DNA of 64,000 bases from Gammaproteobacteria bacterium (GTDB taxonomy: Bacteria; Pseudomonadota; Gammaproteobacteria; Eutrophobiales; Eutrophobiaceae). The stretch is from NCBI GenBank assembly GCA_040905045.1, contig JBBDSH010000081.1, forward strand, positions 18,919 to 82,918. Direction: 5' to 3'. Positions 4,955 through 6,277 of this stretch are shown here, piece by piece. The notes beneath the pieces were generated by a model. The model saw nothing but the letters and a program-made list of their open reading frames with translations. It was not told where the DNA came from and ran no database searches. Numbering within the stretch: the stretch's first letter is position 1; the number at the start of each line of letters is the position of its first letter. Position numbers and translations under genes: made by a program.

Positions 4955-6277
4955 TCAGTTTGTTATACCGACATTTACAGGCTCTGCATCTTTAAATGGC
5001 AACACACTTGACCCCGAAAATACCGCTTTTTCATTGAGGTTCTCCTCTATTCGGATAACCTCATTCCACTTTGCCAACCGTTCAGAGCGAGTGACTGACC
5101 CCACCTTGAATTGTCCCGCACCCCACCCTACGACCAGATGAGCTATAGTAGTATCCTCAGTCTCACCTGATCGCGCCGAGATAATCGTTCCCCAGCCGGC
5201 TTTTCTGGCCAACAATAGTGCTTCGTGTGTTTCTGTCAATGTACCCGTCTGGTTTGGCTTGATCAAAACCGCATTGCAGGCAGATCCCGTGATTGCTTGC
5301 TGAATTCGCCCAACGTTTGTCACCAGAAAATCATCTCCTATGATCTGGACTTTGTCACCAAAGGCCCTGGTAATACGTTTCATCCCTTCAAAATCATCCT
5401 GTGACAAAGGATCTTCGATGGACCATATGGGATATCGCGTAATCCAATCCCCGATCAATTCACTGAAGCTGTCAGCATCATATTTTTCACCTGAAAGGGA
5501 TAAATGATATTCTGTCCCATCAAAGAATTCAGAAGCGGCGAAATCGATTGAAATACCTACATCTTCCCCGGGAGTAAATCCCGCATTCTCGATGGCACGT
5601 ATCAACATCACCAAGGCATCCTCGTTACTCTGGAAATCCGGCCAGTAACCGCCTTCGTCGGCAACTCCGCACAACTTTCCCTGTTCCTCCAGCATCCGCC
5701 CGGCAGCCATATACACACGTACACACCACTCTATAGCTTCATTGAAAGTTGCAGCACCGCCGGGCACGACCATAAAGTCCTGAAAATCAATTCTTCCCCC
5801 GGCGTGAGCCCCGCCACCGAAAATCTGAACTTCCGGTAAAGGCATGATGGCTTGTTCGGCTGTTCCAAGCAGGTGAAGATATAACGGTATAGTGGCTTCG
5901 TTTGCCGCCGCTTTAGCGGCGGCCATGGAAACGGCAATGGTTGAATTTCCGCCCAATCTGCTTTTGTTTACCGTACCATCAAGTTCTATAAGAAGCTGGT
6001 CAACAGCTTCTTGATCCATAACATCCTGGCCCTTCAGAGCATTATGGATAGTAGTATTGATCTTCTCGACAGCCCGGTTAACACCCAGTCCTCCCCATAT
6101 TTTATCAGTCGAATCCCGAAGCTCCACAGCTTCGAATTTTCCTCGCGAGGCACCGGCTGGAGCAATAGCACGCCCTGAACAGCCTGAAGCAAGTAGAATC
6201 TCCGCCTCCACTGTTGGCCTGCCGCGAGAATCCCACACCCGGCGCCCAATAACCTTTGCAATCTTCCCCGTGATCAT
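4955..6277 (-). CDS. enolase (phosphopyruvate hydratase) family protein, divergent paralog
   Basis: 440 aa. DSRGRPTVEAE N-terminus, ADEGGYWP, metal-ligand context DFAASEF / SIEDP / IGDDF, and enolase signature IKPNQTGTLTET. SARSGETED is present where canonical enolases have SHRSGETED. The start overlaps the upstream gene by 4 nt. Confidence 0.85.
   Translation of the reverse strand: MITGKIAKVIGRRVWDSRGRPTVEAEILLASGCSGRAIAPAGASRGKFEAVELRDSTDKIWGGLGVNRAVEKINTTIHNALKGQDVMDQEAVDQLLIELDGTVNKSRLGGNSTIAVSMAAAKAAANEATIPLYLHLLGTAEQAIMPLPEVQIFGGGAHAGGRIDFQDFMVVPGGAATFNEAIEWCVRVYMAAGRMLEEQGKLCGVADEGGYWPDFQSNEDALVMLIRAIENAGFTPGEDVGISIDFAASEFFDGTEYHLSLSGEKYDADSFSELIGDWITRYPIWSIEDPLSQDDFEGMKRITRAFGDKVQIIGDDFLVTNVGRIQQAITGSACNAVLIKPNQTGTLTETHEALLLARKAGWGTIISARSGETEDTTIAHLVVGWGAGQFKVGSVTRSERLAKWNEVIRIEENLNEKAVFSGSSVLPFKDAEPVNVGITN

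Follow-up and report, generated by a model that had tools for sequence, protein, structure and literature searches.

The question raised by this locus is whether a protein that databases name phosphopyruvate hydratase is in fact a bona fide enolase. The locus lies in a 64,000-nucleotide stretch of a Gammaproteobacteria genome (contig JBBDSH010000081.1; the whole stretch is called the window below), and the gene in question, at positions 4955 to 6277 of the minus strand, encodes an enolase-family paralog of 440 amino acids, here called ENO*, whose pocket is changed at two residues, Asp167 and Ala368. The full enolase architecture that a sequence-only reading of this DNA had described was recovered in every part: the Enolase_N and Enolase_C domains are full length (PF03952, 2.7e-48; PF00113, 6.9e-97), and the quoted motifs ISARSGETED, GGAHAGG, ADEGGYWP, DFAASEF, SIEDP, IGDDF and KPNQTGTLTE are all present. 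Against solved canonical enolases the match covers residues 7-422 (E 1e-121), and the closest structure is 4mks, "Enolase 2". The score with the NCBI equivalog model TIGR01060 is 508.8 bits and exceeds the cutoff of 300, which is why databases name ENO* phosphopyruvate hydratase; the 100%-identical database entry, from a Gammaproteobacteria metagenome-assembled genome (MAG), bears this name, and public records apply it uniformly to the proteins of the clade described below. ENO* does not belong to the MR/GlucD/ManD acid-sugar dehydratases (MR_MLE_N/C domains, non-phosphorylated acids); it retains the enolase-type phosphate site, and its match to MR_MLE_C is weak and partial (37.8 bits), beneath the Enolase_C match. 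No second enolase was found within the 64-kb window.

In enolase, Lys345 acts as the general base on the C2 proton and Glu211 as the general acid for the leaving C3 hydroxyl, which is held, together with a water, by Glu168 and His373; the 2-phosphate is held by Ser39, Arg374, Ser375 and the second Mg2+ (yeast numbering, used throughout for family comparisons; residue numbers of ENO* itself count from Met1). The replacement of the histidine of the SHRSGETED motif by alanine, noticed in the sequence-only reading, is real. Ala368 (codon 5174-5176) occupies the position of yeast His373, and displacement of the histidine by an indel was ruled out, as the HMMER alignments to 4mks and 4yws are ungapped around "iisarsgeted"/"vvshrsgeted". 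A one-off mutation or sequencing error at Ala368 was also discarded, since the motif is common to all 120 best homologues. Furthermore, the same two alignments, in which "diqEfm" pairs with "dfqDfm", revealed a second pocket change that had escaped the earlier reading: Asp167 (codon 5777-5779) stands at the position of yeast Glu168. ENO* thus has Asp167 and Ala368 instead of the Glu168/His373 pair of enolase. Further changes are found in the lid loops (Ala41, Arg45, Gln151, Gly154 and Arg162) and at Trp212 and Val392. The Mg2+ ligands Asp245, Glu288 and Asp315 (yeast Asp246, Glu295 and Asp320), the residues of the Mg(II)/phosphate site Ser44, Arg369 and Ser370 (yeast Ser39, Arg374 and Ser375), and Lys340, Glu208 and Lys391 (yeast Lys345, Glu211 and Lys396) are all in place.

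These features are not particular to the window gene. In a search of 5.8 billion proteins, the pattern S-A-RSGE[TS]ED was present in all 120 best homologues (59-73% identity), and ENO* contains all the signature peptides of the clade (QIFGGGAH, VADEGG[YF]W, S-A-RSGE[TS]ED, KPNQ and K-V-G-S). When one genome per GTDB species was scanned with QIFGGGAH and VADEGG[YF]W, two peptides specific to the clade, confirmed relatives were obtained from at least 587 species genomes. Among the matches listed, the clade occurs in Proteobacteria, Streptomyces, Acidobacteria and Chloroflexi; its hosts include Burkholderiales (Ralstonia pickettii, Paraburkholderia, Trinickia and Variovorax), Rhizobiales (Rhizobium and Methylobacterium), Rhodospirillales, Streptomyces, Vicinamibacterales, Dehalococcoidia and Methylomirabilales. 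When 86 clade members were aligned with yeast ENO1 (a 436-amino-acid sequence that reproduces the published numbering) and five canonical enolases of bacteria, the median identity came to 65% within the clade and 46% between clade and canonical enolases, versus 60% among canonical enolases (lowest pair 48%). Matches in a plasmid collection split into those of the clade, at 52-58% identity, and canonical ones, at 48% or less. In Azospirillum brasilense Sp7 both kinds coexist: the clade copy is on replicon p1 (H15/L093), and the canonical eno, with SHRSGETED, is on p3, where it adjoins pflB, pta and ack (H24/L096). Judged by these comparisons, ENO* belongs to a distinct and conserved paralog family. 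No description of this clade was found in the full-text literature on enolase paralogs, APH and enolase, L-glycerate, phosphosulfolactate, 2-phospho-aldonates, catalytic residues, SCO7638 or Rhizobium plasmids. The papers on SCO7638 of S. coelicolor, a possible member of the clade, treat a second enolase as glycolytic.

Both pocket changes are fixed in the clade. The position of yeast Glu168 is Asp in 86/86 clade members versus Glu in 6/6 canonical sequences, and that of His373 is Ala in 85 members and Gly in one, versus His in all six canonical enolases, a pattern that at both positions is far beyond chance. The glycine is found in locus L060 (9986-11275; VSGRSGETED), where the gene of the accompanying kinase appears split into two open reading frames, which may reflect decay or an assembly error. 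When a separating position was defined as one where the six canonical enolases share a single residue and at least 95% of the 86 clade members share a different one, 14 were obtained: N16R, S36A, A107G, N152Q, N155G, E168D, L193A, G209A, A215W, L285W, H373A, D385H, T397V and Q411E. Moreover, Arg162 of lid loop L2 is fixed in the clade, and bacterial canonical enolases have Asn there. The earlier reading had also noted that the GGAHAGG loop differs; this stands for N152Q, N155G and the new, clade-specific Arg162, but His159 is retained. Indeed, Ser39, His159, Gln167, Glu211, Asp246, Glu295, Asp320, Lys345, Arg374, Ser375 and Lys396 are kept in 86/86 members. Taken from the sequences, this reads as an enzyme that has kept its acid/base pair and its binding of carboxylate and 2-phosphate, with a pocket rebuilt on the C3 side and two rebuilt lid loops.

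The gene context of the clade was analysed in 92 non-redundant loci, and the proteins of the window served as tblastn queries for the counts. No partner of ENO* is more conserved than an APH-family small-molecule kinase, with a homologue anywhere in the locus in 87/92; it lies directly upstream of ENO* on the same strand in 59 of the 84 loci with at least 1.3 kb of upstream sequence, and the approximate gaps run from -22 to +237 nt, mostly overlapping. In the window this kinase (10481 to 11515, plus strand), with an intact HGDVSPKN catalytic loop, is 4.2 kb from ENO* and divergently transcribed, a layout shared with the nearest long relative, locus L002. Its similarity to MtnK is weak, and so is that to plant 5-methylthioribose kinase, its only solved relative. 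A D-isomer-specific 2-hydroxyacid dehydrogenase is found in 39 loci, 22 with the type of the window and 16 with a CtBP-like type (<40% identity). The window gene (9466 to 10407, minus strand) belongs to the "trio type", a conserved partner of the cassette. The closest solved relative of its product is the 3-phosphoglycerate dehydrogenase of P. horikoshii, 1wwk (E 1e-55), with which it shares the S-R-(S/A)-V-A-E motif, absent from the glyoxylate/hydroxypyruvate reductase 2cuk; this is a weak hint that its substrate could carry an anionic C3 substituent. The LacI-family regulator of the window (11560 to 12588, plus strand) recurs in 19 related loci.

A FAH-family hydrolase is present in 24 loci. 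The one of the window (14673 to 15539, minus strand), about 8 kb from ENO* and not mentioned in the earlier reading, is LRA6-like, with 310 bits and E 1e-91 to 8gsr, the L-2,4-diketo-3-deoxyrhamnonate hydrolase. By this similarity it almost certainly encodes a 2,4-diketo-3-deoxy sugar-acid hydrolase and is a likely source of the 2-hydroxy acid. This ties the cluster to route-3 non-phosphorylative sugar-acid catabolism, in which the FucF/LRA5 4-dehydrogenase and the FucG/LRA6 diketo-acid hydrolase take part (PMC11199699).

Four layouts of these genes can be distinguished. In the first, only the trio or the pair is present; by independent gene calls and Pfam, the order of a divergent 2-Hacid_dh gene, APH kinase and ENO* was seen in six contexts with unrelated flanks. 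The second (type 2), in Streptomyces, Rhizobium and Burkholderiaceae, combines FAH, cupin, ENO*, VOC, CMD, Zn-ADH and FMN reductase genes with those for a CtBP-like dehydrogenase, APH, LacI, 3-hydroxyacyl-CoA dehydrogenase, CoA-transferase III and acyl-CoA dehydrogenase. The third (type 3), in Paracoccus seriniphilus, Roseibium aggregatum, Sinorhizobium chiapasense and a B. pseudomallei plasmid, has LacI, APH, ENO*, FAH, SDRs and a sugar ABC transporter, with TTT/TRAP transporters in some. The FAH of the window is closest to those of type 3 (50-53% identity). In Paracoccus seriniphilus (L090, 8015-12711) and Roseibium aggregatum (L092, 8982-12910) a FucF-like 4-dehydrogenase, an LRA6-like hydrolase, SDRs and a sugar ABC transporter are encoded together with a candidate sugar 1-dehydrogenase (by family alone), TTT transporter genes lie just upstream, and neither a sugar-acid dehydratase nor a lactonase was found in these operons. 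The Paracoccus FAH gives 277 bits to 8gsr, and the adjoining SDR has its best match in mammalian BDH2/DHRS6 (PDB 2ag5, E 1.6e-54), which is known as a homologue of L-KDF 4-dehydrogenase, and its next best in the L-KDF 4-dehydrogenase of Herbaspirillum (E ~1e-50).

The fourth layout, in Oxalobacteraceae, joins an FMN-dependent L-2-hydroxyacid dehydrogenase and DnaJ to APH and ENO*. In L079 (340-4669), L038 and L074 the gene for the FMN-dependent L-2-hydroxyacid dehydrogenase/oxidase and one for a small DnaJ-domain protein lie ahead of APH-ENO*, and the L-enantiomer of the acid could be converted there via the 2-oxo acid. On three Rhizobium plasmids a ppc-dehydrogenase-kinase operon adjoins ENO*; in L089 (15886-20716), L034 and L048 a second phosphoenolpyruvate (PEP) carboxylase gene is accompanied by the CtBP-like dehydrogenase and APH, with a divergent LysR regulator. 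Besides, in five Burkholderiales MAGs (L013, L015, L027, L033 and L009) a gene for an FGGY-family carbohydrate kinase of about 500 amino acids divergently adjoins APH-ENO*, and in several of them thioesterase, aldo-keto reductase and quinone-oxidoreductase genes lie downstream; this adjacency could be lineage synteny rather than function.

Lid loop L1 occurs in two flavours. GASTG.GEA is found in trio-only loci and type-2 clusters, and GASRG..EA (yeast T40R) in the window, in L002, in the clusters with a diketo-acid hydrolase and in some pair-only and trio loci. The arginine of the window gene is Arg45 (codon 6143-6145, minus strand), and the GASRG form is shared by L002, L090-L092, L095, L013, L015, L027 and L037, so T40R is a feature of a subtype and its being unique to the window gene was ruled out. 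That the Arg-form lid accompanies the clusters with LRA6-like hydrolases, the window among them, is a hint that there are two subtypes by substrate. Very different cluster types nevertheless have an identical core pocket.

With these data, we tentatively propose that ENO* supplies the lyase of a conserved kinase-lyase cassette of two enzymes, which would convert a glycerate-like 2-hydroxy acid to PEP by way of a substrate other than D-2-phosphoglycerate (D-2-PG). The D-2-hydroxy acid would arise from a 2-oxo acid by the dehydrogenase (9466-10407), from the cleavage of a 2,4-diketo-3-deoxy sugar acid by the FAH-family hydrolase (14673-15539), or from both. The APH kinase (10481-11515) would then phosphorylate its 2-hydroxyl. 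The unchanged two-Mg2+ site (Asp245, Glu288, Asp315, Ser44, Arg369 and Ser370) would bind the carboxylate and the 2-phosphate, Lys340 would take the C2 proton, and Glu208 would assist the expulsion of the C3 leaving group, giving PEP, which would enter central metabolism, in Rhizobium via PEP carboxylase. The order of the steps, the 2-O-phosphorylation, the PEP product and the non-2-PG substrate are what we infer. The C3 side appears to be rebuilt in every member (E168D, H373A, A215W, T397V and the lid loops), and therefore the substrate should differ from D-2-PG at C3, in our inference by another leaving group, the opposite configuration or a substituent. It is probably not D-2-PG also because a kinase that yields a normal glycolytic intermediate would need no translationally coupled enolase of its own, and because the Glu168/His373 pair has been replaced by an equally invariant Asp/Ala pair. 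PEP is favoured as the product since the pair or trio is self-sufficient in many genomes, since no enzyme to discharge another enol phosphate is co-encoded and since ppc lies in the kinase operon on the Rhizobium plasmids; likewise, the trio-only modules with unrelated flanks imply a product that requires no further dedicated enzyme. Candidate substrates are L-2-phosphoglycerate, made from the L-glycerate that route 3 would cleave off L-hexonates, 2-phospho-3-sulfolactate, from which sulfite would be set free, and other 3-substituted phospholactates. A dedicated pathway that phosphorylates and dehydrates a 2-hydroxy acid had already been suggested in the sequence-only reading. Its logic at the gene level is well supported by the distinct paralog family with its fixed His-to-Ala change, the kinase in 87 of the 92 loci, the dehydrogenase and LacI, and the canonical eno beside the paralog in A. 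brasilense Sp7, and the non-2-PG substrate is its conjectural part.

Several points weigh against this proposal, and some of them favour instead an ordinary isozyme, in which the kinase would be a D-glycerate 2-kinase of a new type and ENO* a 2-phosphoglycerate enolase, together forming a portable module from hydroxypyruvate or glycerate to PEP, with pocket substitutions that tune kinetics, regulation or inhibitor resistance and not specificity. ENO* exceeds the NCBI enolase equivalog cutoff (508.8 bits against 300), and all the residues known as indispensable are kept, among them the metal ligands, Lys345, Glu211 and Lys396, which is compatible with 2-PG turnover. The dehydrogenase, kinase, enolase and ppc exactly fit the conversion of hydroxypyruvate to D-glycerate, 2-PG and PEP and mirror the corresponding segment of the serine cycle, and LRA6-type hydrolysis of a 2,4-diketo-3-deoxy-hexonate would free glycerate. 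Yeast enolase H373N is reported to retain partial activity, and the placement of the 14 positions around C3 comes from published knowledge of Glu168 and His373 and from sequence proximity to catalytic residues. The two flavours of the lid mean that the clade may lack one single substrate, the annotated loci showed no gene that would handle a released leaving group other than water, and the functional proposal itself is built on sequence and context. Nevertheless, the isozyme explanation is doubtful. It has to accommodate the replacement of Glu168 and His373 in 86/86 clade members together with 12 further fixed changes, and a fixed alternative residue state argues for a different functional optimum. 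The yeast enolase mutant E168Q is reported to have an activity several orders of magnitude lower, and a dedicated, coupled enolase would be needless in the at least 587 species, which, where checked, already have one.

As a second alternative, the cassette could act as a surrogate aldonate dehydratase: the kinase would phosphorylate O2 of a C4-C6 aldonic acid, ENO* would eliminate the 3-hydroxyl, and the resulting 2-keto-3-deoxy enol phosphate would lose its phosphate before the FucF-like enzyme oxidised it at C4 and the LRA6-like one cleaved it. The operons of Paracoccus seriniphilus and Roseibium aggregatum, without an aldonate dehydratase or lactonase, have the kinase and ENO* filling the place of the dehydratase; several pocket changes go to smaller residues (E to D, H to A, N to G, S to A), a Trp is gained, as in sugar-binding sites, and the lid loop varies with the cluster type. 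Even so, this explanation is unlikely, since no gene for a phosphatase or a pyruvate-kinase-like enzyme that could discharge the enol phosphate is present, two mannonate dehydratases lie near the locus of the B. pseudomallei plasmid, the core pocket does not change from one cluster type to another, and the trio-only modules and the ppc operon suit a C3 product better.

A more specific form of our proposal would make ENO* either a 2-phospho-3-X-lactate lyase, acting on a non-water leaving group such as the sulfite of (2S)-2-phospho-3-sulfolactate, or an L-2-phosphoglycerate enolase; at this level of detail it is quite improbable. Sulfite would be the most attractive candidate as a non-water leaving group. 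No sulfite- or sulfonate-handling genes were seen in the four annotated plasmid loci in which they were looked for. Finally, that the leaving hydroxyl is no longer served by the Glu168/His373 network, and that 1,1-proton transfer has a precedent in the enolase superfamily, might suggest a protein that is not a lyase in vivo (a pseudoenzyme, a moonlighting protein, or an enzyme that only abstracts the proton for racemisation, epimerisation or tautomerisation of a 2-phospho acid), but this is very improbable given the strict conservation of Glu211, both Lys, the metal ligands and the phosphate site in 86/86 members, the link through operons to a kinase whose catalytic loop is intact and the placement in catabolic operons.

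Concerning the neighbourhood of ENO* in the window, the ATGA overlap reported in the earlier reading between the stop codon of an alpha/beta hydrolase gene and the start of ENO* was found at 6274 to 6277 (minus strand) and indicates translational coupling. This hydrolase (6274 to 7179, minus strand) is a BD-FAE/Abhydrolase_3 esterase of the hormone-sensitive-lipase-like kind, and is followed upstream by an Amidohydrolase_1 family hydrolase (7210 to 8457, minus strand) and an Abhydrolase_1 hydrolase that resembles the enol-lactonase PcaD (8505 to 9317, minus strand). The neighbours have the identities given to them in the sequence-only reading, but the three hydrolases that it emphasised are not conserved: they accompany ENO* only here and in L002, and were thus ruled out as a conserved part of the system. 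The view of ENO* as the last gene of its operon is likewise uncertain, as no intrinsic terminator was found after it and, 405 nt downstream, the same strand carries a 3-hydroxyacyl-CoA dehydrogenase-family gene (3611 to 4549, minus strand), with distant homologues (29-33% identity) in 11 related loci. No promoter was found in the divergent 74-nt region, nor did a simple inverted-repeat scan reveal a LacI-operator-like palindrome between the dehydrogenase and kinase genes. The FAH gene shares its run with a Meth_synt_2-like gene (12601-13644, minus strand) and an NAD-dependent epimerase/dehydratase-family gene (13659-14645, minus strand), neither of them conserved elsewhere; an enoyl-CoA hydratase gene (15676-16443, minus strand) and a family III CoA-transferase gene (16480-17697, minus strand), the latter recurring in type-2 clusters, also belong to the window cluster.

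Further away on the plus strand, positions 17927-21941 encode a xylose-isomerase-like TIM barrel (AP_endonuc_2), a GFO/IDH/MocA oxidoreductase, a DUF4432 protein and an SDR; this gene run resembles those of inositol or rare-sugar catabolism and may supply the starting compound of the pathway. On the other side, beyond the 3-hydroxyacyl-CoA dehydrogenase gene, a MoCoBD molybdopterin-binding dehydrogenase fragment, a lipoyl E2 acyltransferase (1546-2775) and a CoxG-family protein (2778-3365) are encoded at 137-3365 (plus strand). In L002, genes for 2-oxoacid dehydrogenase E1 alpha and beta lie upstream of its LacI gene.

To our knowledge, all proteins of the enolase family proper, unlike those of the wider superfamily, are regarded as having one function, and annotation pipelines call each of them phosphopyruvate hydratase. 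The clade described here is large, spans several phyla, has two fixed pocket substitutions and is linked to a kinase within clusters for sugar-acid and hydroxy-acid catabolism. If its substrate is not 2-PG, it would bring a new reaction to a textbook enzyme family, a function for an orphan APH-type kinase and a missing funnel from the non-phosphorylative sugar-acid pathways into PEP, and it would correct a systematic mis-annotation, as the extra "glycolytic" enolases distort metabolic models. Should the lyase or the L-enantiomer form be true, the APH protein would represent a hydroxy-acid 2-kinase of a new kind, and many "phosphopyruvate hydratase" entries would be wrong, the clade being present in at least 587 species genomes; in the case of sulfolactate, the trio would lead from sulfopyruvate or sulfolactate to PEP by running the first three steps of coenzyme M biosynthesis (ComA/B/C) in reverse. 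If 2-PG turns out to be the substrate after all, the cassette would add a fourth class to the known glycerate kinases.

Among known systems, the segment of the serine cycle formed by hydroxypyruvate reductase (a 2-Hacid_dh protein, HprA), glycerate 2-kinase (GckA), enolase (Eno) and PEP carboxylase (Ppc) has the same order of enzyme types, with the ppc-dehydrogenase-kinase operon adjoining ENO* on the Rhizobium plasmids. The difference is that the kinase of the clade has the APH fold, outside the three known glycerate kinase classes, and that the pocket of the enolase is altered. Route-3 sugar-acid catabolism is also similar in its LRA6-like hydrolase, shared by the window and the type-3 loci, and in the FucF-like SDR of Paracoccus. 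Nevertheless, the known clusters of this route end at pyruvate and L-lactate or glycolate without a kinase or an enolase, whereas the ENO* loci add the kinase-ENO* pair and two of them have no sugar-acid dehydratase.

With regard to the chemistry, the phosphosulfolactate synthase ComA, which Wise and co-workers are said to have called in 2003 "an enolase that is not an enolase", is a candidate for an enzyme that works alike: through a Mg2+-stabilised enolate it interconverts PEP plus a C3 nucleophile or leaving group with 2-phospho-3-X-lactate. However, its family is unrelated to ENO*, which had no ComA match among the Pfam or NCBIfam results, its physiological direction is the opposite one, and no sulfur-metabolism genes were seen near ENO*. 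LvaA/B and ACAD10/11 are catabolic pairs that phosphorylate and then eliminate, with kinase domains of the APH fold, and they resemble the cassette in that such a kinase activates a hydroxy acid derivative for the elimination carried out by its partner. In those pairs, however, the partner is an enzyme of the acyl-CoA dehydrogenase fold and the phosphate itself leaves, whereas the conserved phosphate site of ENO* leads one to expect that the phosphate remains on the product. The closest comparison is still canonical enolase (EC 4.2.1.11), with which ENO* shares Enolase_N and Enolase_C, about 46% identity, and the same metal ligands and catalytic and phosphate residues. It departs from canonical enolase in E168D, H373A and 12 more fixed substitutions, in its LacI-regulated catabolic clusters with a kinase in place of a housekeeping context, and in that the clade paralog coexists with the canonical eno in A. 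brasilense Sp7. Hence, ENO* would probably work most like enolase, but should not be filed as a bona fide phosphopyruvate hydratase.

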